Below are positions 12,924-60,714 of a DNA stretch of 64,000 bases, piece by piece. Every line of letters starts with the position of its first letter. Positions within the stretch are counted from its first letter, which is position 1. Source of the DNA: an uncultured Mollicutes bacterium. Lineage in GTDB: Bacteria > Bacillota_I > Bacilli_A > RF39 > UBA660. The stretch lies in assembly GCA_947652375.1 (NCBI GenBank), contig CANTCS010000001.1, positions 68,257 to 132,256 on the forward strand, given 5' to 3'. Made by a program: the position numbers and the translations under genes. Under the pieces are notes generated by a model that was given only the letters and a program-made list of their open reading frames with translations, searched no databases and was not told the DNA's origin.

Positions 12924-14600
12924 TTATTTTGTTTTATAATAATCTTTCACTTTTTGCTTTTTATTTTGTGAAATAGATTCAATATCTTCACCATTTACTC
13001 TATCTATTTCTTCATCATATTTATCATAGAGAATGTATTCCTTATCATCAACTAAATAAACAATTCCTCTATTGTCATAACTTATCCACGCTACACTTAC
13101 TTTTGGAATATAAAAATAATAATCGCTATACGGAATACGAACACAATATTCATCTTCAGTAGTTCTTTGCTCATCTATCATATTTCTACTTATTGAAACG
13201 CTCTTTATATATCCTTTTTCTGATTCTAATGATATACCACGAATTTTTTCAAGTTCACTAATTTTACTTTTCAAATATGTAAGATAAGCATACCTTTGAT
13301 TCATATCCATTTTTAATTTATTAGCTTCTGAAATAATATCTTCTACCTCTTCTGTCGTTTCAACATTGAGTTCTTTTTTTAAATCTAAAAATGCTTTAAC
13401 TTCATTTGGAAGTTCAGCATCTATTGGATATATCTCTTGTTGTTCAAGATAGGCATTATAATCATCAAGATATTTAATATATAAATTACAAAGAGGAACT
13501 CTTAATTGCAATGTTTCATGTTTAGATAATAAAGCTTGATACTCATTTTCTTTTTGATCTATATCAGCCTTTAATTCTTTAATTTGTTTCTCTAAGGAAT
13601 TATAATCATATATTTCATGACTATTTAAAAAATTAATTGTATCAACTAATTTATGGTAACGCCTAATTTCCAAATACCTTGAATTGTAGTATTTAAAATA
13701 ATCGGAATTAGTATCTAAGGCCTTCATAGTTGAAAGTACAGAATGCTTAGACAGTCTTGCTAATTCATCATATATATTTAAAATATCACTATCATTTACA
13801 TTTAAATGATAACTAGGAAAATTAATAACTTTTTGATTCTTTCTTTTCTCTCTAAAAAAATCTTTCAATGCTTCTTCACTATAATCAATTCCCAATATTT
13901 TCATAGTAACAAATCTTTCTTTTCCATAAGGTTTAATCCTAATATTTTTGCCTTGTTTTATTTGATAACCTTCAAGTGCTAATTGTTCTAATAATTCATC
14001 AAAAGAATAGCATCTATCTTTTAATATTTCTAACATTTCTATTATTTGTTTTCTCCAAGATTTGTTTGCTAAATCATATAAATATTTATTCTTATGATAG
14101 TGTCCTATTTTTGGTGCGTCCTCAATAATGTGAAGCCCATGCTCTAATGCTATTTGATCACTTGCATCCCTTAATCCATATAAACCTTCAATAGGATTTG
14201 ATAACCTGTCTTCTAATTTTCTTCCTTTTAAATTTAGAGAAGATATGCAAAAGTGATTATGTAAATGCAAATGATCGACATGAGTACACACTATAACTTG
14301 AAAATCTGGATATAATTTTTTTGCAAGTTCTATTCCCATTTGATGAACTTCTTCAGGCGTTAAGTTTTTTTCTTTGGGATCAAATGATTGATAGGCGTGA
14401 TAACAAGTTCTACTTTCATTATCTTCTTCTATATTAAATTTTTGACTATTTCTAAGCATATCATAAGGAGCTAATTCAGCAGAGCAATTTATTCCAGTAA
14501 CTAATTTACCACCCATAGTCTTATCAGGATTTTTAATGTAGTCTATACATTTGATTCTACCTTGCACTCCATGTACTGCCCATCTAGCTGTTGCTGGCAT
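12924..14600 (-). CDS. Relaxase/mobilisation nuclease (MobA/VirD2-type) with a C-terminal extension
   Basis: Histidine triad HVDHLHLHNH and the N-terminal catalytic region (MPATARWAVHG...). The start is placed at ATG 14600 (GGTGAT SD) rather than the alternative start in the track. Confidence 0.85.
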   Translation of the reverse strand: MPATARWAVHGVQGRIKCIDYIKNPDKTMGGKLVTGINCSAELAPYDMLRNSQKFNIEEDNESRTCYHAYQSFDPKEKNLTPEEVHQMGIELAKKLYPDFQVIVCTHVDHLHLHNHFCISSLNLKGRKLEDRLSNPIEGLYGLRDASDQIALEHGLHIIEDAPKIGHYHKNKYLYDLANKSWRKQIIEMLEILKDRCYSFDELLEQLALEGYQIKQGKNIRIKPYGKERFVTMKILGIDYSEEALKDFFREKRKNQKVINFPSYHLNVNDSDILNIYDELARLSKHSVLSTMKALDTNSDYFKYYNSRYLEIRRYHKLVDTINFLNSHEIYDYNSLEKQIKELKADIDQKENEYQALLSKHETLQLRVPLCNLYIKYLDDYNAYLEQQEIYPIDAELPNEVKAFLDLKKELNVETTEEVEDIISEANKLKMDMNQRYAYLTYLKSKISELEKIRGISLESEKGYIKSVSISRNMIDEQRTTEDEYCVRIPYSDYYFYIPKVSVAWISYDNRGIVYLVDDKEYILYDKYDEEIDRVNGEDIESISQNKKQKVKDYYKTK

Positions 14601-44144: not shown

Positions 44145-47100
44145 TTACTTTCTTCTTTTCTTTTTGTTTAATGATATTAAAATTGCTGCTATACCTGCAA
44201 AAGAAAGCCCACCAATAGTTAAATATAAAGTCATATTGTCATCATATCCAGTTTGAACACCATTATTTTCTTGGATAACAGGTAATAGTGTATCTTGATA
44301 TTTTATACTATAAAGTAAATCTTCATTTGTTTCTACTAGCTTATCATTAATGAATAAGCCTTCATCATTTAGTTTTATACGAACAATTTCAGATGAAATA
44401 GAATACCCTTCAGGTGCTTCATATTCACTGGCAAACCATTCCCCATAATAAATTGGTATTAAAGCTGTTCCATCTTCAATATTAGCATGATATATATCTA
44501 CTACTTCTTTACATGCTTCATCTTTACACAATCTAAATGAAAAGTCTTTACTAATTATATTCTCTAAAGTTTTATCATCAACTTTATTAATTAAAACATA
44601 GTTTTTTATTGGCTCGTTATATACCTTTTCTGAATTTGATATTTTTTCAATATTTTGACCTTTATATTTTGTATCTACTGCAAGTTTTTCGGTATTTTTA
44701 TAATATCCATTCAATTCTTGTTCTTCTAAAATTTCAAAATAAATTTCATCATCAAATGAAAGTGGAAGATCAGCATTAAATACATATTTACCTTTATCAT
44801 CAGTTTTACCCACTTCTATTAATTCTCCAGCTTTAACTAACACTTTTCCATCATAAGATAAAATATCTTTAGTTGCTTTCAAATTAAAAATAACACCTTC
44901 TAGTGCTATATCTCTATCTGAATCTAATTTAGTTAAATCTACTTCTACTTTTTGTCTTTTATTAGTAATAGAAAGTGTTTCCATTACTACTTCAGTTTCA
45001 TTATCTTTAAATTCTAAATTGATATTATATTTCTTTGTATCAATAATCATTCCTTGTGGTGCTTTATATTCATAAGCCACATAATGTCCTAAAGGAAGTA
45101 AATTAGATAAAGTATATTCTTCGCTAGTAGTAGTAACTATATCAACTACTTCCCCTTTTTTATAAATTACTGAACCGTCTGCGGGATCAATTATATCCTC
45201 ATCAGCTTGAATATAAACTACCATTCCCTCTAAACTTTTTTCTTCATAGATAAATTTGATATTATCATTTTCATCTTTTTCAATACCTGTTAATACTTCT
45301 CCTCTTTTAGAAACTTTAACTTGTCCTTTAACAGCTTGATCATACATTGTAACTGTTAATATTGGATCACCGTCTTCATCCACTTCTACAATATTAGCAT
45401 TTGTTACTTTAAAATTTTGACCTTCTTTATTAATAACATATAAGTCAGGACTTTCAATTTCTTCAAGAATCCAATTACCAGCCTTAACTTCTAATGGAAG
45501 TTGGAAGAAACCTTTATCTGAAGTTTTCCAAGTATCATAAGTTTTATCAGCAACCTTTTGTGTTAAATATTCTCCAGTATCAGCATTTTTAATTTTAAAA
45601 GAAGTATTAGACATAGTTATTAATTTACCAGTATCTTTATCTCTTTTAACTAATTTTAAATAAGAAGTAAAATTACGATTGTTAATTATATATTTTATTG
45701 TATCTTGATTTTCCCTAGCTACTTTAAATTCCCAAGTATTTTTTACCATATCTGTATCAATTTTACCTTTTACTTGTTTTACTACAAATGTTCCATAAGC
45801 AAGTTTTCTACTTTTAGCATACCCTTTGCTAGAAGTAATTAGTTTATCATATTCCTTTTCTGTAAATTCATTTCTATGATTCCATGCTTCTTCTATACTT
45901 CCATATTTCTCTACATACTTTTTAGCTACAACTAAAAATTCTGCTCCTTCTTCTTTTTCAACTATCTCAGATTCATCACCTGAAGTAATAATTTTTTCTA
46001 ATTCAAAATCTCCAACAATTACACTTTCTTTTGATGTTGTTTTATTAGTTACAACTTTTGCATTTTGATTTGCATAAGTTAAACTAAATTTATGAACTGT
46101 TGGATCAATTGAGAAGCCAATTCCAGCTGTTAGTTCACGCCACTCATAATCACCAAGATATAAATCTTCTACCTTTGCTTCACCATTTGCAATGCGAATT
46201 TTAGTTATTTCAGTTCCTTTAGTATAAATTACCGAATTATCTGCTGGATCTAAAATATCGGAACTAGCATATAACCCATACACAGCACCATCTATTTCAG
46301 ACTCATTTTGTGCATATTTTACATCGGCATCTTCCTTAAATAAATAAGCAGTACCTCTAACTCTTTCGTTAGTTAAACTAACTTTTACACTACCACTTCC
46401 TGTTGCTTTATCACTTACAGTTGTATTATCTGGATTTAACCAGTATTTTGTTTTAGTCTTTGTTTCAATAACTGTAAATGTATGAGTTTGTGATGCTTTT
46501 TGTGTTGCTGCTTTTTGTGCTTCAGCATCTGCTGCTGCTTGTGCCTCTACCCTACTATGAAATGCACCTCTTTGATCTACTTCGGCTTTTCCAGCATCTC
46601 CTAAATCATCCCAGTTTGTTACAAAGGTTTTAGGTGAAGATGTAGAAGAGTGGGAAACTATTGATGTTGATACTGCATTACCACTTGCATCAGTGACTCC
46701 AGATGAAAATTTAACCCCATCTCTATAAAAATCCACCTCCACTCCAGATAGTGGCTTGTTTGTTTCAATATCAGTTTTATGAAAAGTTATTTCTACTCTT
46801 TCATCTGATGTTTTAGTAGAACTTAATGTATCATATACAGGTTCCACCTCAGTTAATCTAAATACAGAGATATAATCCATAGAATTTACATGTGGTGGTA
46901 TATTAAGTGGCATAATACTATATTCTGTATCATTTAATGATGAAGCATTAATAGTTGATACATTAGTAGCCATAACATAATCTTTTATGCCTGTAGTTCC
47001 AGCACCATAATTAGCAATAGTTTTTCCATAAATGTGCATAAAACCTACATGACCATCACCTGTATATGAAGCTTTATCTTCTGGTCTTTGAATAATTAAA

Positions 47101-47516
47101 TCGCCATTTTTAAATAAATGAGCATTTGCTTCTATATCTTTAATATATCCTTGCCAAATTAATTTTGCATCTTCAGGATGATTCATTGCGTTTTTATACA
47201 TTGCAGCTGGAGAATACCTTGCACCTGTACCTTCAGGTTGTTTAGTATCAATATTGTAAGGATGAGTTCCAACTACTGATGTTCCAATACCTAATTTATT
47301 TAATGTACGAGTAACTAATCCTGTACAAGTTCCTACCTCCCAATATCCCCAACTACTATAATTTTGAGCCACTTCAATAATCTTATCACCAGATACATTT
47401 GAAAGTGCATGAACTTCAGTTATAAATGGTGTAATAGGAATTGAAGCAAGAAAAATACCTACTGCCATAACTGCATTTAAAAATTTTTTTAACTTCATAC
47501 CAAATTTCTTCTTCAC
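44145..47516 (-). CDS. Cell-wall-anchored adhesin: NlpC/P60-like head, Cna-B/SpaA-type stalk, GVQTG sorting signal
   Basis: GTG start with GAAAGGAGA SD and a signal peptide. Cys (GTCTGLV) and His (GDGHVGFMHIYG) in the head. Repeated prealbumin-like stalk modules (GDYEWRELTAGIGF, GHYVAYEYKAPQGM, GEWFASEYEAPEGY). The C-terminus is NNGVQTG, then a hydrophobic helix, then KKKRRK. Confidence 0.8.
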   Translation of the reverse strand: MKKKFGMKLKKFLNAVMAVGIFLASIPITPFITEVHALSNVSGDKIIEVAQNYSSWGYWEVGTCTGLVTRTLNKLGIGTSVVGTHPYNIDTKQPEGTGARYSPAAMYKNAMNHPEDAKLIWQGYIKDIEANAHLFKNGDLIIQRPEDKASYTGDGHVGFMHIYGKTIANYGAGTTGIKDYVMATNVSTINASSLNDTEYSIMPLNIPPHVNSMDYISVFRLTEVEPVYDTLSSTKTSDERVEITFHKTDIETNKPLSGVEVDFYRDGVKFSSGVTDASGNAVSTSIVSHSSTSSPKTFVTNWDDLGDAGKAEVDQRGAFHSRVEAQAAADAEAQKAATQKASQTHTFTVIETKTKTKYWLNPDNTTVSDKATGSGSVKVSLTNERVRGTAYLFKEDADVKYAQNESEIDGAVYGLYASSDILDPADNSVIYTKGTEITKIRIANGEAKVEDLYLGDYEWRELTAGIGFSIDPTVHKFSLTYANQNAKVVTNKTTSKESVIVGDFELEKIITSGDESEIVEKEEGAEFLVVAKKYVEKYGSIEEAWNHRNEFTEKEYDKLITSSKGYAKSRKLAYGTFVVKQVKGKIDTDMVKNTWEFKVARENQDTIKYIINNRNFTSYLKLVKRDKDTGKLITMSNTSFKIKNADTGEYLTQKVADKTYDTWKTSDKGFFQLPLEVKAGNWILEEIESPDLYVINKEGQNFKVTNANIVEVDEDGDPILTVTMYDQAVKGQVKVSKRGEVLTGIEKDENDNIKFIYEEKSLEGMVVYIQADEDIIDPADGSVIYKKGEVVDIVTTTSEEYTLSNLLPLGHYVAYEYKAPQGMIIDTKKYNINLEFKDNETEVVMETLSITNKRQKVEVDLTKLDSDRDIALEGVIFNLKATKDILSYDGKVLVKAGELIEVGKTDDKGKYVFNADLPLSFDDEIYFEILEEQELNGYYKNTEKLAVDTKYKGQNIEKISNSEKVYNEPIKNYVLINKVDDKTLENIISKDFSFRLCKDEACKEVVDIYHANIEDGTALIPIYYGEWFASEYEAPEGYSISSEIVRIKLNDEGLFINDKLVETNEDLLYSIKYQDTLLPVIQENNGVQTGYDDNMTLYLTIGGLSFAGIAAILISLNKKKRRK

Positions 47517-47753: not shown

Positions 47754-48527
47754 TTATTTGCAAATATTTTCATTCATTTCAATTTCCTTATCTACATAAA
47801 TTTTTTTTGAAGTCTTACAGTAAAGCACATCAAAGTCGTTTCCATGATATAAAACATCATTATTATAACTATATATATTAAATTTCCCTTTTTCTGCCTG
47901 ATATTCTAAAAACTGCAAAAAATCAGAAATTTCTAACCAACCATATGATAAAATCTGATCAAAATATATCATTTTTCCCATACCATTTTCTATTGCTAAA
48001 TTTCCGAAGCAATTATAGTTAATAGTATAATCTTTAATGCTAAAAACATCTGGAATATAACAATAGCCAGTATCATTAATAGGAAATATTTTATATTTTA
48101 ACTTTTTATAATCATCAATTTTTCCACAAAAATTATTATCAACTTTTCCAACCCTATAATTGATTATAATTTTATTATAAAAACCTTCTCTTTCGAAGTT
48201 ATAAGACAATATTGAATAATTGTTTTTCTCATTATAATAAATAGCGTCAGATGAGGTACAATTATATCTTTCGTATTCTTCAAAAATTTTTTTTAATTCC
48301 TTCTGAATAATATATTTACTTCTAAATGTCTTCAATACAATGTAATTCTTTTCCTTTTCTACCACCTTAGAAAAAATCGGAATGTTTATTTCAATGGAAT
48401 CTGAAATATATACTTTACTACCAAATGGATAGAATTTTAAAATCAAGAAAAATAAACATACTAAAAACAATAGCAGTATAAAAATTTTAATAGTAATTTT
48501 TTTCATTATTTGTTCTCTCTTTTCCAA
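47754..48527 (-). CDS. Membrane-anchored Cys-containing extracytoplasmic protein, unknown family
   Basis: N-terminal TM (IFILLLFLVCLFFLIL), then a domain of about 220 aa. No family recognised. Confidence 0.4.
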   Translation of the reverse strand: MEKREQIMKKITIKIFILLLFLVCLFFLILKFYPFGSKVYISDSIEINIPIFSKVVEKEKNYIVLKTFRSKYIIQKELKKIFEEYERYNCTSSDAIYYNEKNNYSILSYNFEREGFYNKIIINYRVGKVDNNFCGKIDDYKKLKYKIFPINDTGYCYIPDVFSIKDYTINYNCFGNLAIENGMGKMIYFDQILSYGWLEISDFLQFLEYQAEKGKFNIYSYNNDVLYHGNDFDVLYCKTSKKIYVDKEIEMNENICK

Positions 48528-48635
48528 TTTATTAATTGTTTAAATTTAATTTTAAGATTATCATTATATTATATTATACTATTTCACAAAAAAATTGCAA
48601 GATTGATTACATAGTGATAATCTTGCAATTTAAAA

Positions 48636-49484
48636 TTATTTATTTAATATATCATTGTTTATGCTATCCAATAAACTTCTTAAATCAGAGTTATTAGTTA
48701 AAACAGAATCAGATTCTGTCAAATCTTCAGAAGATGTACTTTGCTTTTCTATTATCTCATTTTCTAACTGTTCTAATAATGATGATTCTTGTTGACTTTG
48801 AACAGAATAACTATTAAATGAAGCAACTTCTGTTTTATTTTCAGGAATAAATTCTATTTCAATATTATTTATATATCCATAGTCAATAATATACATAACT
48901 TGCCATTCACCAGGTTTATTAACATCAGAAGACTTTTGCGTTTTATATTCTAAAGATGGTGCTTTAATATACTCGCCTGGATTACTTTTCATTTGCGAAT
49001 TTATTGTTCTGTTAAATAAATCAACTAAATAACTTTTACTTATTTTTGTAACATTTAATGTATCTAGATCCTTCAATGTAATTTCTCTTACAAATTTTTT
49101 GTTATTGAAAAAATTGTTAATTTCCTTTATTTCATCTCTGTATTTTTCTGAAGTAGATAATGTTGCATACTTCGACGGTATTCTTTCAATTTCTTCGCCT
49201 GTTTCCATATTCTTATAGGATATATAATATTCTGTACCTTCTGGCTTATGTTTTAAATTATAACCATCAAAGATATAATTAATAGTTTGGTTCTCATCTG
49301 CATAAATTATCTCAAAGCCATATACCCATCCATCTTCTAGTTCATCAAAAACACTGCGTTCTGTATATCCTAATTCACTGTCTACTATAAGTTTTTTATT
49401 ATTTGATTGAGCATGAACAGTAAGTATACCTATTAGTAAAACAACCATACATATACAAGCTGCTACAATTCCACTTTTTTTCAT
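48636..49484 (-). CDS. Secreted protein, unknown family
   Basis: Signal peptide MKKSGIVAACICMVVLLIGILTVHA. 282 aa with an S/E/L-rich tail. Confidence 0.4.
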   Translation of the reverse strand: MKKSGIVAACICMVVLLIGILTVHAQSNNKKLIVDSELGYTERSVFDELEDGWVYGFEIIYADENQTINYIFDGYNLKHKPEGTEYYISYKNMETGEEIERIPSKYATLSTSEKYRDEIKEINNFFNNKKFVREITLKDLDTLNVTKISKSYLVDLFNRTINSQMKSNPGEYIKAPSLEYKTQKSSDVNKPGEWQVMYIIDYGYINNIEIEFIPENKTEVASFNSYSVQSQQESSLLEQLENEIIEKQSTSSEDLTESDSVLTNNSDLRSLLDSINNDILNK

Positions 49485-49523
49485 TCTTTCACCTCCATTT
49501 TTATAAAATTACATATTGTATTA

Positions 49524-50024
49524 TTAATTCATACAAATTCCATAATAGAATAATCCCTGTGGAATAGGAGTACCACCTGTTATTCCAGAAATTGAGAAAT
49601 TCATATATAATTCACAAGTTTGATCTCCTTCACTATCAATATTCCCAGGAGTAATTGTTTTATTAAGCTGAAAATCTGTTAGTACCCTTCCAGTAAAAAA
49701 TCCAATGTAATATTTAACTCTTTCATCTGGTTCATATGCTGGAGGATCATCTTCCATCAAATACCCATGTATAATTGTTCCAGAACTTGGCGTATACCAA
49801 TTTGGTAAACTCCCAAAGTTGGAAAAATAAACGGCAGTGTTGATTCCTTTACAGGCACTTGCTGTTGTTTTTAAGCTTACAATATGCCCTCTATTCTCTG
49901 CATAACCTTGTGGTATTTGAGGAGCTTGTAATCCCCATTCGCAATCTCTTGCATAAACATTAAAATTTCCTACAAAAAATAGTCCAACTAGAAAAATACC
50001 AAACATTATAATCTTTTTTCTCAT
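49524..50024 (-). CDS. Small Sec-exported four-cysteine protein, paralog L
   Basis: Signal peptide ending VYA|RDCEW. Cys at 28, 58, 137 and 164 of 166. Shares ARxCE(W/Y)G, T(T/S)AS(A/S)C, GDQTCELYM and a terminal ICM(N/D) with 60229..60714. Confidence 0.5.
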   Translation of the reverse strand: MRKKIIMFGIFLVGLFFVGNFNVYARDCEWGLQAPQIPQGYAENRGHIVSLKTTASACKGINTAVYFSNFGSLPNWYTPSSGTIIHGYLMEDDPPAYEPDERVKYYIGFFTGRVLTDFQLNKTITPGNIDSEGDQTCELYMNFSISGITGGTPIPQGLFYYGICMN

Positions 50025-50243: not shown

Positions 50244-50915
50244 TTACTTTTTTTTACACTTTTTTATTATTAATTCTTTTAATGTAAGAAATATCAAACA
50301 AATTAAATTAAAACAAACTATCACAATGGCTATCTTTATAAAATTATATTTTAATTGTTCTTTTATTAATAAGTGAGTTTTTGCATTTATTTTTAAAAAA
50401 TAATTTTCAAATTCATTATCACTGGTGTACATATTGGATATTTTATATGGTAATTCTGTCCTAAAATTTAATCTAACTTTATTATTAGATTCAAAAAATA
50501 AAATACACACTGTTTTTTCATTGCTATATATAATTATTCTTTGATTTTCTAATATTAGATTAGATTGAATTTCTACCCCATTTTCCTTTAAAAATAGAAC
50601 TATATTTTCTATAGAATCATATTTAGCAAATACTGATACTTCTCCAATGACTCGCTTACGAAAGTCATTTTTATTTATTTGAATAATAGCATCATCACAA
50701 AAAGACAAATAATTATTATTTACAATTAAAGAATCCAAAAAGATAGAATCCAAATCAGATACTTTTATTTTTTCATTATATTGATAAATTCTAATTTCTC
50801 CACTTTTATAGTTGTATTCTTTTTTTAACAAAAATATCCGACAAAAATATAATGTAAGAAAAATAATTATACTCAATATGATAACAACAATATATTTTTT
50901 TGAAAAGTTTGACAT
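50244..50915 (-). CDS. Double-TM envelope protein immediately downstream of effector A (candidate immunity protein)
   Basis: N-terminal TM (IVVIILSIIIFLTLYF) and C-terminal TM (IAIVIVCFNLICLIFLTL) flank a domain of about 150 aa. It starts 78 nt after the stop of A. Confidence 0.4.
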   Translation of the reverse strand: MSNFSKKYIVVIILSIIIFLTLYFCRIFLLKKEYNYKSGEIRIYQYNEKIKVSDLDSIFLDSLIVNNNYLSFCDDAIIQINKNDFRKRVIGEVSVFAKYDSIENIVLFLKENGVEIQSNLILENQRIIIYSNEKTVCILFFESNNKVRLNFRTELPYKISNMYTSDNEFENYFLKINAKTHLLIKEQLKYNFIKIAIVIVCFNLICLIFLTLKELIIKKCKKK

Positions 50916-50993: not shown

Positions 50994-53426
50994 TTATCTT
51001 CCTTCTGTATATTCCTTAAATATAAATGATTTAAATGCATCTATTGCTGCATCAATATATTTTTGTTCAGCACTACTCAATGTTCCCTTTAACTGTTTTA
51101 TAGGCGTTTCATCAGAGTTTATCAACTCACAAAGCTCAATAAAGCGTGATGTTGACATATAATTTAAAAATCTGCTTGCTCTTTTCTCATACTCATATTT
51201 ATGAGTTTCTAAAGATGGTAAAACATAATAAAAGTAAAATGCTTCTGGTAGAGTATGCCCTTTAAATTTAATCATATGGTATAAATTATATGCATCAATA
51301 TCATCTATATAATCTGGAAGATTAAAATGTGCTTGATTTGGAGTACAAATATTATCTTTTGCCCATTTAACATAATCAGTAGTTAATCCATCTTTATCTG
51401 CTTTTTGAATTGAATCTGCATACGAAATTGTATCTCCAGCCCAGCCAGAATAACAATCAACTAATTCGTCAAAACCTCTTAAATCATCATTTCCAATTTG
51501 GTATAGTAACGAATTTAGAGTAGCTGCTAAATGTGGTAAATCATGTGATGTAGTAGGATTTACAGATGAATCTACAAATCCAAAATCCAAATTATATAAT
51601 TTGCTATCTACTAAATTACAATATCCTTTGTCTATAGTACCAGCTACAACATCCCATTTAATATTACCTATTACACCCCCTTCACTTTGACTTCCATTTC
51701 CAGCAAAAATAGATGTATCTCCATAGCGTCCCTTTCTAAGATATTGTAGAACTAATAAATTACTTTTTTCTTCATTGTTATTAGTATAATCTAATGCTAA
51801 ATTATACATATCAACTAAATTATAATATACCTTTCCATAATCTTTTAGATATAGATCCCCTATTAATCCAAGATCCCTACCAGACATCGCATCTTTATCT
51901 ATTTCAATCCTACCCTCTCCAGAGCCGATAGTAACAGTTGCAAATTGATCAAATGCCCAATTATCTGGTATAGGGAATCCTAGATTTCCACTAAATCCTG
52001 TTGACATATCACTAACAAAACTATATTTTGCTAAGCCTTTATTACTAACTCTCGTACAAACATTTCTTGTTCCATATATACTAACAGGGTATTTATTATT
52101 ATACTTACTTTTCATTATATTGTTTATTGTTGTAAAATATGGAATAATATTAGAAGTTATTTCTGTATCTAAAGGATCACAATCGACTGCAAAATAAATA
52201 CTAGTATCACTAGGCATGCCAAGTGCATTTGCGTGTTCAAAAGCACTGTCTACATCTTTTATTGCGTTTTCAGTTGTAAAATATGAAACTTTGTTTGCAC
52301 TTGATTGATGAATTGGAAAAATATATAATCCAGCATCAGCAGCAATTTGTAATTCTTCTCTTGTTAATGCTTTACTTGCTCCACTTGCAATATATCCAGA
52401 TAAGTATCTTCCAACTCTAAGATAACCATTATCATATAAAGTTTTTGCTTTTGCTTGTGTTAAAATAGTAGCACAATCACATGCACTAGCACTTCTATCC
52501 GTGTCTCCACAACTAATTAATAGAGATAACCATGTTGTATAATCTATTTTCCCATTTGCTGAAATAGAGTATTTAGTTTGAAAACTCATTATAGTATTTT
52601 CGTCTAAATTAGATGTTAATTCTCCTGAACCAAATCCATTAAAATACAAAGCTATATTTGCTAAAGTTTTAAATTTATTTAAACTAGCAGTTGAATATGA
52701 TTGTCCATTATATCCAGTACCCGATGATGTTCCGTTTGCTGATAATATTGGTAGACAACGCTTTGTAGATGGTCCACAGTTTCCATTAGCTACTGAAGTA
52801 GGCATACACTCTTCTGCCTGAATTGCATATATCAATGCTTGACTTGTTCTACGAGCATATACTCCATCACATGGTCTAATTCCAATATAGGCTTCATAAT
52901 TTCTATTTAGATATCTTTGCATTTTAATAATATTTTGAGTCTTTTCTGATTGATCATATGAATAGAAGTAATCCATTGATAATAATGCTTTCATAACATT
53001 TAAAGTTACTGTTGAACTTGTATCTGTTAACCCTGCATCTTCCTTTAAATTTTTTATTGCCCCACCTGTTCCTCCGTAAAAATTACATGTAGGCGTGTTA
53101 GCACCTATTGCATATCCTTTGCATAGTAGTGCTCCTTGTATGATTCCATAAATGTTCTTCTTTGTTTTATCATCTGATGATTGTTGTTGTACACCATTAG
53201 GATATTGAGTTTTGAATGCATTTTGTGTACCATTTCCAAAATTATCAGCTGTAGATTGAATTCCTAATTCAATTTGTAATGCTCTTGTTAAAGCATAAAT
53301 GGTAGCCCATCCAGTTTTACCATTTTCTGTAACAGTATTAAATCTACTGTCATTTCCATAAGTATCATTTAACCATTTTTGTGTATAAAATACATATGGA
53401 TCTCCTACTACTTCGTTATTTGCCAT
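50994..53426 (-). CDS. Leaderless cell-wall effector A: three PG-binding-like repeats, a DUF1906/Rv2525c-like glycoside-hydrolase-like domain and a unique C-terminal region of about 295 aa
   Basis: No signal peptide or TM. PG_binding-like units (ADNFGNGTQNAF, FYGGTGGAIKNL, DGVYARRTSQAL). GH25-like TIM-barrel region (GYLRVGRYLSG...IYFAVDCD...IYGTRNVC...DNWAFDQF). The N-terminal 515 aa or so are paralogous to B. Confidence 0.6.
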   Translation of the reverse strand: MANNEVVGDPYVFYTQKWLNDTYGNDSRFNTVTENGKTGWATIYALTRALQIELGIQSTADNFGNGTQNAFKTQYPNGVQQQSSDDKTKKNIYGIIQGALLCKGYAIGANTPTCNFYGGTGGAIKNLKEDAGLTDTSSTVTLNVMKALLSMDYFYSYDQSEKTQNIIKMQRYLNRNYEAYIGIRPCDGVYARRTSQALIYAIQAEECMPTSVANGNCGPSTKRCLPILSANGTSSGTGYNGQSYSTASLNKFKTLANIALYFNGFGSGELTSNLDENTIMSFQTKYSISANGKIDYTTWLSLLISCGDTDRSASACDCATILTQAKAKTLYDNGYLRVGRYLSGYIASGASKALTREELQIAADAGLYIFPIHQSSANKVSYFTTENAIKDVDSAFEHANALGMPSDTSIYFAVDCDPLDTEITSNIIPYFTTINNIMKSKYNNKYPVSIYGTRNVCTRVSNKGLAKYSFVSDMSTGFSGNLGFPIPDNWAFDQFATVTIGSGEGRIEIDKDAMSGRDLGLIGDLYLKDYGKVYYNLVDMYNLALDYTNNNEEKSNLLVLQYLRKGRYGDTSIFAGNGSQSEGGVIGNIKWDVVAGTIDKGYCNLVDSKLYNLDFGFVDSSVNPTTSHDLPHLAATLNSLLYQIGNDDLRGFDELVDCYSGWAGDTISYADSIQKADKDGLTTDYVKWAKDNICTPNQAHFNLPDYIDDIDAYNLYHMIKFKGHTLPEAFYFYYVLPSLETHKYEYEKRASRFLNYMSTSRFIELCELINSDETPIKQLKGTLSSAEQKYIDAAIDAFKSFIFKEYTEGR

Positions 53427-53525
53427 TTTTTCATCTCCTTAAATATTAAATTTTTTACTGCAAATTTTTAGTACATCTAAGCTCTCCAAATTTTTAATTA
53501 CATTTCTAAAAGATTTAATACTAAT

Positions 53526-54186: not shown

Positions 54187-54663
54187 CTAATTTTTAAATT
54201 TTTTTGATAATTTTTGAATTGCAATATCTATACTAAACTTTACTGCTCTTTTTGTGCATCCTTCTTCTATTGCTATTTTTTCATATGTTTTGTGTTCTAT
54301 ATAATACTTTTTTAATCTATTTTTTTGTATAGTTGGCAATTCTTCTATAAAACTATTCAATAGTTCTATCATTAATTTAGTTTCAATAATGTCTTCTATT
54401 GATATATCTTTATTAAAAGATCTTTTGTATAAAGTTTCTTCATAAAGTTCTGAGTGCTCAATATGATTATCATATTCATTCATTTCAGATAAATCTTCTA
54501 ACTCAAACTTATTGAACTCTTTATATAACAATTCATTTATTTCAATCACTCGAGTAATGTTATTCACATCTTTAAATGAGAGAGTATAAGTCTTTTTTAC
54601 TTCATCAAATCCAAGTGTATAAGGATTATCCTTGCTTTTTCTTCTTTTTGGGAACACACCCAT
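54187..54663 (-). CDS. Sigma-70 region-4-like HTH regulator (no recognisable region 2)
   Basis: C-terminal LPTIQKNRLKKYYIEHKTYEKIAIEEGCTKRAVKFSIDIAIQKLSKKF is a region-4/LuxR-like HTH. The N-terminal half resembles the small sigma-like proteins of Gram-positive conjugative transposons. Confidence 0.55.
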   Translation of the reverse strand: MGVFPKRRKSKDNPYTLGFDEVKKTYTLSFKDVNNITRVIEINELLYKEFNKFELEDLSEMNEYDNHIEHSELYEETLYKRSFNKDISIEDIIETKLMIELLNSFIEELPTIQKNRLKKYYIEHKTYEKIAIEEGCTKRAVKFSIDIAIQKLSKKFKN

Positions 54664-55124: not shown

Positions 55125-55562
55125 TTATGATTTATGATTTGATTCTTCTCCTTTTATGGTTTCTATGTCATTTTCATCTTGATCTTTATTTAATTTTTCA
55201 AGCGATTTATATAAAATATTAGGAACTTTGATTCCCATAGCACTACTATTTTCTAAAATTGATAACATCTCATTAAAAATAAATGAATATATAATTAATG
55301 CTCTTAAGCCTCCATTTACTTCCAATAAATTATCTAATATTACTGCCACTGCAACAACACATAAGTATACTGCTTTTTTTATAATTCCTTTACCTCCTAT
55401 ACTGCTATTAACTTTTTTCGTAATAAAGGCTCTACTTACACCTGTTATATAATCTATAAACATTAAAGACAATAAAGTTTTTAACATAAAATCAAAACTT
55501 CCAAATAAAAAAATCAAAAAAGATAACAAAAAACTAATTATATTATCAAAAATTTGTTTCAT
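55125..55562 (-). CDS. Holin of the TcdE / LL-H (phage_holin_4_1-type) family
   Basis: 145 aa with three TMs, the DYITGVSRAF...NSSIGGKGIIKK motif shared with TcdE-type holins, and a charged C-terminal tail. Confidence 0.75.
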   Translation of the reverse strand: MKQIFDNIISFLLSFLIFLFGSFDFMLKTLLSLMFIDYITGVSRAFITKKVNSSIGGKGIIKKAVYLCVVAVAVILDNLLEVNGGLRALIIYSFIFNEMLSILENSSAMGIKVPNILYKSLEKLNKDQDENDIETIKGEESNHKS

Positions 55563-55696: not shown

Positions 55697-56455
55697 CTAA
55701 TATTTTAATATTTGCCCTATTTTAATTAAATCAGGGTTATTACCTATAATGTCTTTATTTAATTCATATAATTTTTCCCAAGTTGTTCCAAACTTTTTAG
55801 CTATTTTTATTAGAGTATCATCTTTTTTCACCATATAAAAATTTGTCCCTTTTAGCTCTTTATTTTTTATTTCATTTACTATCTTTTGAACATCACTTGC
55901 ATTATATCCCATATTTGTAAGTTTATCAATTCTAGTCTTTCCATTACCATATTTCCCCGCAATTACTTCATAAGCAATTTCTATTAAATCTATTTTAGAT
56001 GTCTCAGAATGATTAATGTTTTTTAACTGGTAATCATAATTATGTGGATCTTCATATTCCCCACCATTACTATTTTTCATTCCTAAATGCAAATGAATTC
56101 CTGTTGCCATACCAGTTGAGCCTGTATAGCCAAGCAATAACCCTTCATGAACTTCTTGCCCTGTTTTTACACAAATACTATCTAAATGGTAATGCAAAAT
56201 TTTTTTATTGATTCTTGGATAATTTACCCATATAAATTTAGCTCCATCAGAAGCGATTCCACAGGATAAAATTTTGCCATTTTCTAATGCATATTGTCCC
56301 CACTTTTCTCCGTTAGTTCCATAATCGCATCCATTATGAAAGTTGGTGGTTATACCTTTTTTAGTTTTAATTGGAGCTCTACTCCCAAAAGGGGAAGTTA
56401 CATACCAATCATTTCTTTTAAATATTTTAGTTGCAAGTTTTATTTTAATCACCAT
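55697..56455 (-). CDS. Leaderless endolysin: M23 peptidase, CW_7 repeat and LysM
   Basis: No signal peptide. M23 ligands HNGCDY and HLHLG. CW_7-type IAYEVIAGKYGNGKTRIDKLTNMGYNASDVQKIV. LysM YMVKKDDTLIKIAKKFGTTWEKLYELN. Confidence 0.8.
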   Translation of the reverse strand: MVIKIKLATKIFKRNDWYVTSPFGSRAPIKTKKGITTNFHNGCDYGTNGEKWGQYALENGKILSCGIASDGAKFIWVNYPRINKKILHYHLDSICVKTGQEVHEGLLLGYTGSTGMATGIHLHLGMKNSNGGEYEDPHNYDYQLKNINHSETSKIDLIEIAYEVIAGKYGNGKTRIDKLTNMGYNASDVQKIVNEIKNKELKGTNFYMVKKDDTLIKIAKKFGTTWEKLYELNKDIIGNNPDLIKIGQILKY

Positions 56456-56538: not shown

Positions 56539-57075
56539 TTATTGACATTTATAACTATTTCTAGAACATTTGACAACTTCGTCTGAACTAGAAATACTAG
56601 CACTTCCATTATAATATATATAATCATCATCTACATTTTTTATAGAAGTTAACATTAATTTACTATCTAATTTTGATAATAAATCTATTTTGCTAGTCTT
56701 ACTTCCAGATAAAGTATACTCTAAAACTACTCCTCCAGAACATCTATTAACATAAAGCTTATCACCATAAAAATAATTTTGATTTTTATTTTTGTAAGCT
56801 TCAGAAGAATTACAAGAATTTATTTCATCAAGCAATATATAATCATCATCTGTTACCTTATAAAATAAACCACTAATTCGTTCTTCATTATTTTCAGGAG
56901 TGATATCAGTAATAATATACTCATGCTTATGATTATCATCATCTACATAGGAATATCTATTAGTAATATCATAATTCTTTAAATTATAATGTTTAAAATC
57001 TGTATATTGACTGTTATTTTCACATCCACATACACATAATATCAAAAATAAAAGTATAACTACATTTTTTTTCAT
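56539..57075 (-). CDS. Lipoprotein immediately downstream of effector B (candidate immunity protein)
   Basis: Start at ATG 57075 (MKKNVVILLFLILCVCGC, lipobox-like VCGC). It begins 62 nt after the stop of B and is followed by a terminator. No family recognised. Confidence 0.45.
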   Translation of the reverse strand: MKKNVVILLFLILCVCGCENNSQYTDFKHYNLKNYDITNRYSYVDDDNHKHEYIITDITPENNEERISGLFYKVTDDDYILLDEINSCNSSEAYKNKNQNYFYGDKLYVNRCSGGVVLEYTLSGSKTSKIDLLSKLDSKLMLTSIKNVDDDYIYYNGSASISSSDEVVKCSRNSYKCQ

Positions 57076-57137
57076 CTTAATCACCAAAACTATTATATCA
57101 TATTATATTATACTTGATAATATCTAATGATAATTTT

Positions 57138-59396
57138 CTAATACCAAGCTCTTTCAGATCCTTGACTAGCGTACTCAATTCCAATGCTTGCATAACCAGA
57201 AAAACTAGTAAATGAACTACTGCCTTTTTTCTTAATTCCATCTATACGGTTTGTCCATGGTCTTGTGTACCCTGGATTAATAAAATTACCTCTATTTATT
57301 TTTATATAATCACCCTTATTAAGCATTCCTACATAAGTTCCTTGGGCATTAAAATAAGGAACTGGTTTATTAATATAGATTTCTCTTGATGATGTATCAT
57401 CCCATTTATGCAATATATATTCATCAGAAGCTTGATCATATTCTACACAAGTGAATGGTTCATGACCTACTAATATTTGTGCTTTTACGGCTTCATCATC
57501 AGTAGGATTTAAAGTCATACTAGGTAAAACATACTGTTCTCTTATATAACCTATTTTGACATCTTTACCATCATTAAACATGACTCTATGAACATTATCC
57601 ATACTAGGGCTACTAACTTGATATCTAACATAGAAATCATGAGGCTTAATATAACCTATTATACCCCCTGTAGGTTCGTACATTGGTACAACTGGGGCAA
57701 CCTCAGGCATAACTGGCATTTTTTTTGCATAAACAGGCACTGATGATTCAGTCATATTTATTAAAATTCTTCCTCCACCTTCATAAAGATTTGTATGATT
57801 ACAATCACCATCAGCAACAGAGTATTCTTGGGCAATACCTTCATATCTTCCAGAAAATCCATCTTTATCTATTTCTATTGATTTTCCACCAGATGATATT
57901 GTTGTAGTATTAAATTGATCAAATGCCCAATTATCTGGTATAGGAAATCCTAGATTTCCACTAAATCCTGTTGACATATCACTAACAAAACTACTACATG
58001 CATAACCAGCATTACATACCCTAGTACATAAATTTCTCGTTCCATAAACACCAACACGGTATTTACCTTTTCCAGCAGTCATGAAACTTGAATATAGAGT
58101 TTTGAAATAAGGTAAAATTAAACTTGAAATTTCTGCATCTGTTGCATCATAATCTACCGCAAAGTAAATGATTGATCCAAATTGTAATTTTAAATTATCA
58201 GCATACTCTGCTGCACTCTCTGCATCTGCTTGTGCATTTTCTACGGTAAAATATGAAGCCTTGTTAGCTGATCTTTGATGAATTGGAAATAATCTAATAC
58301 CATTCTTAAATAACACTTGTAATTCTGTTGTAGATAATGCTTTACTTGCTCCACTTGCAATATATCCAGATAAATATCTACCAATATATTTATAATTATT
58401 ATTTTTTAAAACACTAACATTATCAGTAGTTATTATGGTAGCACAATCACATGCAACTGCACTTCTATCTGTGTCCCCACAACTAATTAATAGAGATAAC
58501 CATGTTGTATAATCAATCTTACCTGTTGCTGTAATTGAATATTTTGATTGAAAACTTTTTATAGTATTTTCGTTTAGATTAGATGTTAATTCTCCTGAAC
58601 CAAATCCATTAAAATATAATGCTATATTTGCTAAAGTTTTAAATTTATTTATACTATCTGTTGAATATGCTTGTCCCTTATAACTAGTTCCTGAAGATGA
58701 GCCAGTTACTGAAAGTGTTGGCAAACATCTTTTTGTAGCTGGTCCACAGTTACCATTTGCTTCTGATGTTGTCATGCCTTCCTCAGCTTGAATTGCAAAG
58801 ATTAATGCTTGACTTGTTCTACGAGCATATACTCCATCACAAGGTCTAATACCAATATAGGCTTCATAATTTCTATTTAGATATCTTTGCATTTTAATAA
58901 TATTTTGAGTCTTTTCTGATTGATCATATGAATAGAAGTAATCCATTGATAATAATGCTTTCATAACATTTAAAGTTACTGTTGAACTTGTATCTGCTAA
59001 TCCTGCATCTGCTTTTAATTTCTTTATAGCTCCACCTGTTCCTCCATAAAAATGACAAGTTGGTGTATTTGCTCCAAAATCATAACCTTTACAGATTAAA
59101 GCTCCTTGTATAATTCCATAAACATTATCTGATGATTTATCATCATCTGATTGTTGTTTTACTCCATTTGGAAACTTACTTTTAAATGCATTTTGTGTTC
59201 CATTTCCAAAATTATCAGCTGTAGATTGAATTCCTAATTCAATTTGCAATGCTCTTGTAAGAGCATAAATAGTAGACCATCCTGTTTTTCCATTTTCAGT
59301 TACAGTATTAAATCTACTATCAGACCCATATGTTTCGTTTAACCATTTTTGTACATTGTATACATATGGATCTCCAGTCGTTGTTTTTTCTGCCAT
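57138..59396 (-). CDS. Leaderless cell-wall effector B: the same PG-binding-like plus DUF1906-like N-terminal module as A, with a different C-terminal region of about 245 aa
   Basis: Start set to ATG 59396 (MAEKTTTGDPYV), which is in register with the start of A and 8 nt after AAGGAGA. The track start at 59405 lies inside the SD. The C-terminal part (VPVYAKKMPVMPE..., GTYVGMLNKGDYIKINRG) may include SH3-like wall-binding folds. Confidence 0.6.
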   Translation of the reverse strand: MAEKTTTGDPYVYNVQKWLNETYGSDSRFNTVTENGKTGWSTIYALTRALQIELGIQSTADNFGNGTQNAFKSKFPNGVKQQSDDDKSSDNVYGIIQGALICKGYDFGANTPTCHFYGGTGGAIKKLKADAGLADTSSTVTLNVMKALLSMDYFYSYDQSEKTQNIIKMQRYLNRNYEAYIGIRPCDGVYARRTSQALIFAIQAEEGMTTSEANGNCGPATKRCLPTLSVTGSSSGTSYKGQAYSTDSINKFKTLANIALYFNGFGSGELTSNLNENTIKSFQSKYSITATGKIDYTTWLSLLISCGDTDRSAVACDCATIITTDNVSVLKNNNYKYIGRYLSGYIASGASKALSTTELQVLFKNGIRLFPIHQRSANKASYFTVENAQADAESAAEYADNLKLQFGSIIYFAVDYDATDAEISSLILPYFKTLYSSFMTAGKGKYRVGVYGTRNLCTRVCNAGYACSSFVSDMSTGFSGNLGFPIPDNWAFDQFNTTTISSGGKSIEIDKDGFSGRYEGIAQEYSVADGDCNHTNLYEGGGRILINMTESSVPVYAKKMPVMPEVAPVVPMYEPTGGIIGYIKPHDFYVRYQVSSPSMDNVHRVMFNDGKDVKIGYIREQYVLPSMTLNPTDDEAVKAQILVGHEPFTCVEYDQASDEYILHKWDDTSSREIYINKPVPYFNAQGTYVGMLNKGDYIKINRGNFINPGYTRPWTNRIDGIKKKGSSSFTSFSGYASIGIEYASQGSERAWY

Positions 59397-59473
59397 ATTT
59401 TTCATCTCCTTAAATATTAAATTTTTTATCTAATATATAGAAAGATTAAAATACCGTATTCAAGTCCGTTTCA

Positions 59474-59502: not shown

Positions 59503-59564
59503 TTGAACACAATAGATATAAATACCATATTTTATTTATAGTCCGGACATATAAAATAAATATT

Positions 59565-59746: not shown

Positions 59747-60241
59747 TTACTCTATTTTACTAGAATCTGATACCCAATCGGAATTTATATTGGCTGATAT
59801 TCCATCCACTATCTCTAAATGATTATAATTATTTGTATCTACTTTAATAAAGAAATAAAATGGAATATTATTTGATAAGCTATAAGATTTATCTTTAGCA
59901 AGATTATCACAACTATAAGTACCATCATTACATTCTGAATTATAATTAACCTTTATATAAAGAATATTGCTTTGAGATTTATAATATCCATATAATTGTA
60001 AGCTCTCTAGTTCAATTAATTTTAAATTAGAGTTGTCAAAATAATCTGAACTATCAATTTTCTTATAAACAGCGTCTACTATTTTTTGTTCCTTTTTATT
60101 AAATCTTTCATTTGTATCCAAGCCATTGCTTTTCGTTTTATTTGTTGGTTTTTTGAATAAAAAAATTAATGATGATACTATTATCAATAATAAAATTAAT
60201 ACCATTATCCAAATTTTTTTATTTTTTTTTAATCCATGCAT
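59747..60241 (-). CDS. Membrane-anchored extracytoplasmic protein, unknown family
   Basis: N-terminal TM (IWIMVLILLLIIVSSLIFLF). 164 aa. Overlaps the upstream gene by 13 nt. Confidence 0.4.
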   Translation of the reverse strand: MHGLKKNKKIWIMVLILLLIIVSSLIFLFKKPTNKTKSNGLDTNERFNKKEQKIVDAVYKKIDSSDYFDNSNLKLIELESLQLYGYYKSQSNILYIKVNYNSECNDGTYSCDNLAKDKSYSLSNNIPFYFFIKVDTNNYNHLEIVDGISANINSDWVSDSSKIE

Positions 60242-60714
60242 ATTGTATACCTAAACATATCACTGTCAAAGTATTCAACATTATTATGTGCTAATGGCTC
60301 TTTTAATCTAAATTTCATATACAACTCACAAGTTTGATCTCCAGCACTATCCAAATTACCATCAAATTTTTGCTGTAAAGTCCATTTCATTAAACTATAA
60401 CCTGAATTATAACCAAAATATAATTTAGCTTTATCATCTGGATTAGGATCTTTATCTTTTTCCATTAAATATGCCTCTATGGTAAAATTATGAGTGGATA
60501 AATAATTTCCATCACTAAAATAAACATACATATTATCAGCTAGACATGATGATGCTGAAGTCTTAAAATTTATTACTTGTCCATAAGCCCAATTTCCATT
60601 ATAGTATATTGGTGGTGATGGCATTCCATACTCACAAGTCCTAGCTTCAACTGCAAACGGCATAAAAACTGCCATACATAAAATTATAAATACTGCTTTT
60701 TTCATAATTAACAT
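60229..60714 (-). CDS. Small Sec-exported four-cysteine protein, paralog R
   Basis: Signal peptide ending VEA|RTCEY. Mature Cys at 27, 57, 129 and 159 of 161. Paralog of 49524..50024. The start may be ATG 60705. Confidence 0.5.
   Translation of the reverse strand: MLIMKKAVFIILCMAVFMPFAVEARTCEYGMPSPPIYYNGNWAYGQVINFKTSASSCLADNMYVYFSDGNYLSTHNFTIEAYLMEKDKDPNPDDKAKLYFGYNSGYSLMKWTLQQKFDGNLDSAGDQTCELYMKFRLKEPLAHNNVEYFDSDMFRYTICMD

Follow-up and report, generated by a model that had tools for sequence, protein, structure and literature searches.

The window, a 64,000-nt stretch of contig CANTCS010000001.1 from an uncultured Mollicutes bacterium (RF39; UBA660), carries two large paralogous genes, A and B, together with a set of smaller genes between and behind them. 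In window coordinates, the features are:

50244..50915, minus strand: dnA, 223 aa, with N- and C-terminal TM segments and an outside domain
50994..53426, minus strand: gene A, 810 aa, signal peptide absent
50994..51869, minus strand: A C-terminal domain, all-alpha, Pfam PF27189 'YkzU', with TelC homology
51870..52493, minus strand: A codons 312-519, Rv2525c-like barrel, type-specific, ending at the IEIDKD..SGR junction
52512..53426, minus strand: A codons 1-305, peptidoglycan-binding repeat zone, homogenised with B
52882..53026, minus strand: 145-nt tract identical to B 58852..58996, a B-to-A conversion tract
53427..53457, minus strand: shared 5' UTR and Shine-Dalgarno sequence, A copy
54187..54663, minus strand: sigma-70 region-4-like regulator (domain search)
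55125..55562, minus strand: holin, PF05105 (Phage_holin_4_1; Pfam)
55697..56455, minus strand: leaderless M23 peptidase-CW_7-LysM wall hydrolase (domain search)
56539..57087, minus strand: dnB, lipoprotein of ~178-182 aa, lipobox ..LCVCGC
57138..59396, minus strand: gene B, 752 aa from the ATG at 59396
57138..57839, minus strand: B C-terminal domain, two beta-rich sub-domains, ending ..ERAWY
59397..59428, minus strand: shared 5' UTR, B copy, with a 1-nt indel
59537..59553, minus strand: TATATGTCCGGACTATA motif, ~140 nt upstream of B

Domain layout and gene neighbourhood

Gene A begins with three PG_binding_1-like repeats, continues into an Rv2525c/DUF1906 barrel and closes with a TelC-like C-terminal domain. 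Gene B has the N-terminal module in common with A, ends in a beta-rich C-terminus and likewise encodes no signal peptide. Both proteins are modelled by AF2 with high mean pLDDT (91 for A, 87 for B). The barrel scores 154 bits against PF08924 (Pfam gathering cut-off 27), and its fold is matched by Foldseek to Rv2525c (4pmr; TM(target) 0.78-0.80) as well as to GH25 enzymes. Whole-chain Foldseek searches with the two AF2 models returned matches to the barrel only, and PDB searches with the single sequences of A, B, dnA and dnB were uninformative. The repeats and the Rv2525c/GH25-like barrel most likely dock on the Gram-positive wall and help the protein through it.

The host genome holds two full copies of the module, and within its taxonomic family the module occurs sporadically, in 5 of 201 genomes. 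No match to the locus was obtained by megablast against the PLSDB plasmids. A and B would be cargo of a conjugative island in uncultured low-GC gut Bacilli.

The holin, the M23 hydrolase and the sigma-like gene all lie between A and B, and the locus thus places large leaderless proteins in the company of holin, endolysin-type and sigma-factor genes. Family PF05105, which we take to include TcdE, also supplies a holin next to family members at three other loci (L012, L014 and L015), and four distinct types of locus have a holin adjacent to a family gene; at the A-type locus L016 there is none within 9 kb. The scanned neighbourhood encodes surface-protein, primase, methylase and ABC-transporter domains. 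The LXG domain is absent from A and B, and T7SS genes were not noted in the scanned parts of the window. Given this linkage and the lack of signal peptides, export probably proceeds through the TcdE-type holin and the M23 hydrolase under the control of the local sigma-like factor. Such an export context appears to be undescribed in the literature searched.

C-terminal domains and their downstream partners

A profile of the A C-terminus (A3), run against the PDB with hmmsearch, matched 5UKH, which is TelC, in three collinear segments (E = 3.4e-9). The DxxH, GWxGD and DYxxDxD motifs are kept. Among 67 sequences there is no variation at H632, D705 or D711 and at least 90% conservation at R749, and the His and both Asp residues stay invariant after distant homologues are added. 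These four positions, with D711 lying at +6, fit the prok-TelC signature laid out in PMC12419801, namely an active-site His, an H4 Asp, a second Asp at +6 and a C-terminal Arg. On sequence grounds, the A C-terminus is homologous to the toxin domain of TelC, a lipid II phosphatase that depends on Ca and is toxic from outside the cell only (PMC5555719). This homology predicts lipid II cleavage by the back half of A on the outside of the target membrane. The domain is found, among proteins of 446-1417 aa, on the family N-module only and is thus not, at the detected sequence level, a promiscuous cassette also used by LXG or Rhs proteins. Its distant relatives sit behind lectin, Big_2 or CBM modules. 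Searches of a Pfam copy lacking PF27189 and of NCBIfam gave no match to either C-terminus, and literature searches on ykzU, ykuG, or DUF1906 with bacteriocin found nothing relevant.

The C-terminus of B is homologous to those of a further group of family members, the C-type genes. A profile search of this B/C-type domain against the PDB gave zero matches, and it has no Pfam relative. Our impression is that it is SH3b-like, and in B it may serve to target the wall instead of acting as a toxin. The first-pass annotation had called both genes polymorphic toxins; that label is strengthened for A by the TelC homology, while B is left without a known relative.

Each C-terminus is followed by its own kind of gene. 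Homologues of dnA, a candidate immunity protein for the TelC-like domain, lie 3' of A-type genes in L011, L008, L009, L014 and L017 in addition to the window. L007 has a collinear 224-aa ORF (13155..13829) in a ~95%-identical nucleotide block, which is dnA-like by collinearity alone, and the A-type locus L016 is an exception with no dnA-like neighbour. A PDB search detected no similarity between dnA and solved structures. The lipoprotein dnB, a candidate immunity protein or inhibitor for B, has homologues 3' of the B-type genes in L011 (74% identity) and L015 (48%), giving three of three loci with the window included; in a related genome (G144), B and dnB have decayed together. A third gene, dnC, follows the C-type genes in both of their loci. 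Judged from these gene orders, the downstream gene covaries with the type of C-terminus, and the outward-facing, membrane-anchored proteins encoded after A and B are probably immunity proteins.

These partners bear on a different reading of the locus, one that treats A and B as housekeeping or ICE-service wall hydrolases, such as autolysins or mating-channel enzymes, whose C-termini target different wall polymers, like those of modular endolysins, and vary by ordinary lysin shuffling instead of toxin/immunity diversification. Such a role would suit a barrel that resembles both GH25 lysins and Rv2525c, a beta-rich and unannotated B C-terminus, the position of the loci on conjugative elements, and the lectin, Big_2 and CBM modules that precede distant relatives of the A C-terminus. 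It is nevertheless unlikely, since a proven toxin is among the homologues of the A C-terminus, which retains the active-site signature of that toxin, and since each gene is followed by a type-specific, outward-facing membrane protein, one of which decays with its partner. Furthermore, the ICE at L012 has a CHAP hydrolase of its own, and the module is present in just 5 of 201 related genomes.

The cluster could also be viewed as the remnant of a prophage lysis module, with A and B as oversized endolysins. A holin and an M23 lysin are indeed present, the N-module matches phrog_15213 (E = 6.5e-169) as well as an endolysin PHROG, and a faecal 'Bacteriophage sp.' record contains a copy with 38% identity. 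However, no phage structural domains were found in the scanned part of the neighbourhood, a separate lysin is already there, and a toxin domain with immunity-like partners is present, which makes a prophage origin very improbable.

Gene conversion in the front module and exchange at the junction

From the start codons to about 51870 and 57840, A and B align without gaps at an offset of +5970, as the first-pass annotation had it. Over this module 1215 of 1557 nt are identical in an ungapped comparison (78.0%), and BLASTP of the proteins gives 394 of 529 identical residues with 0 gaps. The 26-nt block of 5' UTR is identical at 26 of 26 positions, at an offset of 5971; B has one extra base between the Shine-Dalgarno sequence and the ATG relative to A, and for this reason its ORF can be extended in frame to 59405. 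The last codons in common are those for IEIDKD(A/G)(M/F)SGR, where homology had been said to end, and just past either module border identity drops to 34/100. Further upstream, the TATATGTCCGGACTATA motif is also kept before family genes in L011, L012, L017 and L018.

Identity within the module is a mosaic, as had been proposed, rather than a uniform divergence. Of the two near-identical patches reported earlier, 52834..53026 versus 58804..58996 was recounted at the same 191/193, while 51942..52024 versus 57912..57994 came to 81/83 instead of the claimed 82/83. The region of the three peptidoglycan-binding repeats (nt 1 to ~920) has an A/B dN of 0.09, against 0.37 in the barrel (nt ~930-1557). 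The longest identical run is 145 nt; in 10,000 shuffles the longest run averaged 25 and never reached 145. For identical synonymous third positions the longest run is 45 versus 17, and 0 of 20,000 shuffles reached 45.

The 145-nt tract corresponds to nt 401-545 of A, and dS falls to 0.036 in its codons (134-182) compared with about 0.57-0.74 in the flanks. The A orthologue of G144 is 94% identical to A and differs from it at 17 sites inside the tract; at all 17 of the listed differences (nt 414-537) A has the same base as B. The tract states in A match the B lineage (B0, P0053) and not the A orthologues, and from this pattern of shared states the donor is B and the recipient A. L011, the third island copy, has paralogues with 100% identity across nt 1-923, and this stretch is A-like; it records an independent event in the opposite direction, A-to-B. 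Quartet sites tell the same story at a larger scale: in nt 1-900 none support orthology and 49 support concerted evolution, whereas in nt 901-1557 the counts are ~117 and ~15. In L014, paralogue DNA identity (82%) extends only across the first 582 nt. Strong concerted evolution is thus confined to the peptidoglycan-binding zone, codons 1-305. Recurrent conversion of the N-module, suspected from the first, is borne out by the shuffles, the three-way comparison with G144 and the L011 identity.

Copies lying 6 kb apart have thus converted each other repeatedly within the first 900 nt; either copy has acted as donor, and the events are independent in different hosts. Conversion is limited to this part because the adjacent barrel has diverged. 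The barrel, having diverged too far, stays tied to its own C-terminus. Conversion between these paralogues seems to be undescribed in the literature searched. The use of dS as a clock was considered and set aside: orthologue and paralogue dS both plateau at ~0.65-0.73, and with dS near saturation in an AT-rich genome of 25% GC the ages of the events are unreadable from it.

Every compared sequence, and with it every locus, is a MAG or metagenome contig, so that identical tracts might be suspected of being short-read assembly artefacts in which repeats were collapsed or cross-threaded. There is little chance of this: the tract flanks remain on the correct paralogue with no visible swap, two long contigs both yielded the exact B11 protein, the pattern is repeated in independent assemblies and lineages, and assemblers are not expected to collapse 15%-divergent copies into identity. 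Least credible of all is purifying selection with codon bias acting on conserved peptides, for even though patches such as nt 1404-1485 encode motifs near-invariant in the family and codon usage is extremely AT-biased, synonymous sites are identical too, the closest A orthologue differs within the tract at the sites counted above, and another host has a different and much longer identical tract (923 nt).

Gene conversion of the front is joined, in the wider family, by exchange of the back. Between the A-type gene of L017 and the C-type gene of L018, identity is 98.8% across a stretch of 1,816 nt that runs from the upstream flank to codon 517; past the common junction their C-termini are unrelated and their downstream genes differ (dnA-like versus dnC-like). 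Proteins P0057 and P0097 have 514 of 519 aa in common. A-type, B/C-type and a third type of C-terminus are all found on one N-module, and the IEIDKD..SGR junction is fixed across the types, as in polymorphic toxins. The number of changes of C-terminus label needed is 15 on the N-module tree, 26 on the tree of the peptidoglycan-binding part and 8 on the barrel tree. In B-type genes, barrel and C-terminus form one old clade, which makes the A/B junction in the window ancient. Cassette exchange, which the first-pass annotation had read from the sharp breakpoint between A and B, therefore holds for the wider family (L017/L018) and not as a recent event in this pair. Orphan C-terminal cassettes or immunity arrays were not found, the host genome having only the two full copies, and what is left of B in G144 is a pseudogene that arose by a microhomology deletion and bears a stop codon. 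In the family at large, C-terminus and putative immunity gene are swapped as a cassette at the conserved junction encoding IEIDKDGFSGR.

Relation to known systems and implications

Taken together, these observations make it probable that A and B are paralogous, leaderless, secreted antibacterial effectors on a conjugative island, with a front that undergoes conversion and a back in which toxin and immunity gene are swapped. The closest characterized relative is TelC, the LXG effector of S. intermedius (5UKH), whose active-site motifs, Asp-rich and His, recur in the A C-terminus. TelC attacks lipid II from the outside and is neutralised by an extracytoplasmic immunity protein. A differs from it in having the PGBD and Rv2525c-barrel module and probably a holin, and may be diffusible rather than contact-dependent; dnA, for its part, has no detectable similarity to solved structures.

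The architecture of PGBD, Rv2525c barrel and TelC domain has been catalogued, Bacillota included, by Burroughs et al. (2025; PMC12419801, section 31), who read it there as a potential conflict system engaging the cell wall and list as actinobacterial operon partners an Ig pair, 3TM-CCDN and VanY. The holin, M23 and sigma context found here is missing from that paper ('holin' occurs 0 times), and its treatment of this architecture does not mention ICE location, alternative beta-rich C-termini or paralogue conversion.

Members of the colicin M family (PMC5821083) resemble what is proposed for A and B in being secreted, in degrading lipid II with a C-terminal domain behind modular N-terminal parts, and in having a cognate immunity protein on the outward face of the membrane. 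They differ in their unrelated catalytic fold, Gram-negative targets and receptor- and Ton-dependent import. In gene context the locus resembles those of holin-associated clostridial exoproteins, namely the large clostridial toxins with TcdR/TcdE/TcdL and BCN5 with UviA/UviB, which are also large leaderless proteins whose genes neighbour sigma-factor, holin and endolysin-type genes; the holin of the PaLoc lies between two paralogous large genes, as the holin does here (PMC9527704). Homology to BCN5 was suspected from this sigma/holin context and rejected, as BCN5 is a Zn-carboxypeptidase with SH3b domains (PMC9527704) and the likeness is one of analogy only. A Pfam search with A and B gave zero matches of the BCN5 or large-clostridial-toxin type; any sequence relationship to these proteins is absent, and holin export at the A/B locus is deduced from its genes. 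Finally, tandem paralogues in T7SS, Rhs and CDI toxin-immunity loci (e.g. PMC9484751) also show recombination or conversion of conserved segments and displacement of the C-terminal toxin and its immunity gene at a fixed junction. The present locus differs in having two full-length, expressed-looking paralogues rather than orphan arrays, and conversion restricted to the first 900 nt.

A bolder proposal, which we put forward as a tentative possibility, is that these genes represent an undescribed class of Gram-positive bacteriocin: a diffusible, holin-released counterpart of colicin M, with a converted delivery module, swapped warheads and immunity genes, and conjugative spread. If so, the peptidoglycan-binding and muramidase-like module would carry a TelC phosphatase through the walls of competitors, and paralogue B would deliver a wholly new beta-rich killing domain. 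To our knowledge, all TelC-type lipid II phosphatases with experimental support are contact-dependent T7SS effectors. With a TelC protein that has no leader but has its own module for crossing walls and a TcdE-type holin, gut Bacilli would possess a secreted and possibly contact-independent weapon, and A would be a candidate protein antibiotic aimed at lipid II. Tests of wall-directed activity are now also within reach for the uncharacterised B/C-type C-terminus, which comes with a lipoprotein partner. Ultimately, the locus offers a clean natural case in which recombination partitions a gene into a concerted delivery part and a replaceable warhead: conversion stops once divergence is too high, and warhead and putative immunity gene are replaced as a unit at one conserved junction.

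Mosaic identity in the shared front half of A and B

The two paralogous effector genes of the window are placed as follows:

50994..53426, minus strand: gene A, encoding 810 aa
57138..59396, minus strand: gene B, with an ORF readable from 59405

Their first ~520 residues (the N-module, with PG-binding repeats and an Rv2525c/DUF1906 barrel) align without a gap at 74% identity (BLASTP). The register B = A + 5970 proposed in the first-pass annotation runs unbroken between the start codons and 51870/57840 (1215 of 1557 nt identical), and the homology ends as sharply as had been described, with IEIDKD(A/G)(M/F)SGR as the final common codons and identity just beyond the module at 34%, the background level for 25% GC DNA. 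The 26-nt block of 5' UTR is also shared (26/26); here the offset is 5971, since one base has been gained or lost between the Shine-Dalgarno sequence and the ATG. The Shine-Dalgarno region GGAGATGAAAAA itself holds an ATG (window 53427-53440 and 59397-59411). This ATG is in frame only in B, owing to the one extra base there, and so lengthens ORF B by a spurious MKNM.

Two near-identical patches had been reported within the module; the recount returned the same 191/193 for the first and 81/83, not 82/83, for the second. Identical runs extend up to 145 nt, as opposed to an average maximum of 25 after shuffling, with no shuffle attaining 145; at synonymous third positions they extend up to 45, as opposed to 17, again reached by no shuffle. 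NG86 dS between A and B (saturated) drops to 0.036 at codons 134-182 from 0.57-0.74 in the flanks. Selective constraint was considered as the only cause of the identical patches, but the 145-nt run, the third-position run and the dS drop exceed both chance and constraint. In the shared module, dN is 0.09 in the PG-binding zone and 0.37 in the barrel zone.

Gene conversion and cassette exchange

The window's own genome holds only these two copies. The sister genome G144 has a copy of the island that is 93-95% identical, and in A nt 414-537 all differences from the G144 orthologue (17/17) fall at sites where A matches B; the A gene of G144 is only about 85% identical to B there. Unlike A orthologues, A has B-lineage residues in this tract (as in window B and the homologue P0053), and B therefore overwrote A in the window's lineage. 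On the metagenome scaffold L011, which carries the island with A and B both intact, the pair is 100% identical and A-like over nt 1-923 and 50-80% identical beyond, a tract whose pattern marks it as an independent, recent conversion in the direction opposite to the window's. Quartet-informative sites (A and B of the window and of L011) favor concerted evolution over orthology by 49 to 0 in nt 1-900, and orthology over concerted evolution by about 117 to about 15 in nt 901-1557. In the more distant lineage L014, DNA similarity (82%) between two co-resident paralogues is confined to the first 582 nt. From the G144, L011 and L014 comparisons, the shared module is therefore made of two zones, a PG-binding part that is repeatedly homogenised and a type-specific barrel that largely escapes conversion. 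An assembly artefact was considered for the identical tracts, and in its favor every data set behind the conversion and exchange results is an assembly. The recurrent conversion suggested at first pass is borne out by the G144 sites, the L011 tract and the quartets, and gene conversion between A and B is counted as shown.

The C-termini of the best 120 homologues are A-type, B-type or a distant C-type, the latter two being mutually homologous, and their labels require 15 changes on the N-module tree, 26 on that of the PG-binding part and 8 on that of the barrel part. Alternative cassettes in related genomes, which the first-pass annotation had proposed to look for, were found: the A-type P0057 and the C-type P0097 have 514/519 residues in common and share nothing after. 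Their contigs, from different samples, match at 98.8% identity across 1,816 nt, of which 260 nt lie upstream of the gene, and diverge completely from coding nt 1553, and the downstream gene differs accordingly (dnA-family for P0057, dnC-family for P0097). These contigs show that exchange at the IEIDKD..SGR junction is real in the wider family. For the window pair, exchange does not hold as a young event: B-type genes are monophyletic (100% support), and the A/B junction in the window is therefore old.

At L014 16147-18078 the same N-module is joined to a C-terminus of a third kind (about 140 aa, beta-rich and Ig-like by eye). The neighbor of this gene is an A-type gene directly preceded by a holin.

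Partner genes and neighborhood

A is followed by dnA, a two-TM protein, and B by dnB, a lipoprotein; both are candidate immunity genes. By homology, the gene after the A-type gene belongs to the dnA family in L011, L008, L009, L014 and L017, and a collinear 224-aa ORF occupies the dnA place in a near-identical block of the G144 locus; the A-type locus L016 has no dnA-family gene. A dnB homologue follows the B-type gene in L011 and L015. Across these loci, partner genes evidently covary with C-terminus type. In G144 (locus L007, G144:C1 6690-7470), the B remnant contains an in-frame stop codon, and B and dnB have decayed:

Counterpart window 59348..57685: B deletion, 1.66 kb between two CAATGTAC microhomologies
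Counterpart window 56932..56636: dnB decay, about 300 nt lost between ATGTAGATGATGAT repeats, with 4 nt also lost

Further features of the window are as follows:

Between A and B: a PF05105 holin, an M23-CW_7-LysM hydrolase and a sigma-like gene
59537-59553, minus strand: GC-rich 17-mer TATATGTCCGGACTATA, about 140 nt upstream of B
44145-47516: 1,123-aa surface protein with SpaA/Cna-B-type repeats
40971-44123: 1,050-aa surface protein with Listeria-Bacteroides repeats

Holin/M23/sigma-type genes are also found next to members of the family in L012, L014 and L015. That the cluster is a prophage lysis remnant was considered as an alternative. Next to the effector cluster, directly on its downstream side, are the two surface proteins, both very large. 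Every locus examined (including L008, L009, L010 and L012) also has a 257-aa TM protein and two kinds of secreted protein, one of 282 aa and one with four cysteines (166 and 161 aa), found in the window at 47754-50024 and 60229-60714. They occur with any type of C-terminus and resemble island genes more than toxin-specific partners. In L011, L012, L017 and L018 the 17-mer is conserved ahead of genes of the A, B and C types, with a TTGTCA..TATGAT-like promoter after it, and it may be an operator or sigma-dependent element. No copy precedes A in the window, where a 111-aa gene lies in front of A.

Domains and proposed function

Neither protein has a signal peptide, and both contain PG_binding_1 repeats and PF08924. 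The AF2 models are confident (pLDDT 91 for A, 87 for B), and Foldseek matches their barrels to Rv2525c, LytC, SleM and a phage GH25 lysin. A role for A and B as wall-remodelling enzymes was also considered. The C-terminus of A is all-alpha, is labeled PF27189 'YkzU' in the sequence collection's precomputed Pfam labels, and by profile matches PDB 5UKH, the TelC toxin domain (E = 3.4e-9). Residues H632, D705, D711 and R749 agree with the prok-TelC signature given by Burroughs et al. (PMC12419801), who already catalogue, for Bacillota, the fusion of TelC with PGBD and the Rv2525c barrel and call it a "potential conflict system". The profile match and signature residues show homology of this C-terminus to TelC, a Ca-dependent lipid II phosphatase whose toxicity is confined to action from outside the cell (PMC5555719). 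The C-terminus of B is all-beta in its AF2 model and has no relatives in Pfam or PDB. Among proteins of similar length, the A and B C-termini are each found only with this N-module. Weak TelC/YkzU-like domains end proteins of about 1,000 aa (P0176, P0207 and P0209) with Big_2, RicinB lectin or CBM96 modules, the lectin or Ig modules preceding the domain, a further delivery context for the fold.

The module is present in 5/201 genomes of the window's taxonomic family, a distribution that, like the domain context, fits A and B as mobile-element cargo. In the mechanism we propose, release of A and B would depend on the holin, the N-module would dock on and penetrate the wall, A would cleave lipid II, and dnA and dnB would provide immunity.
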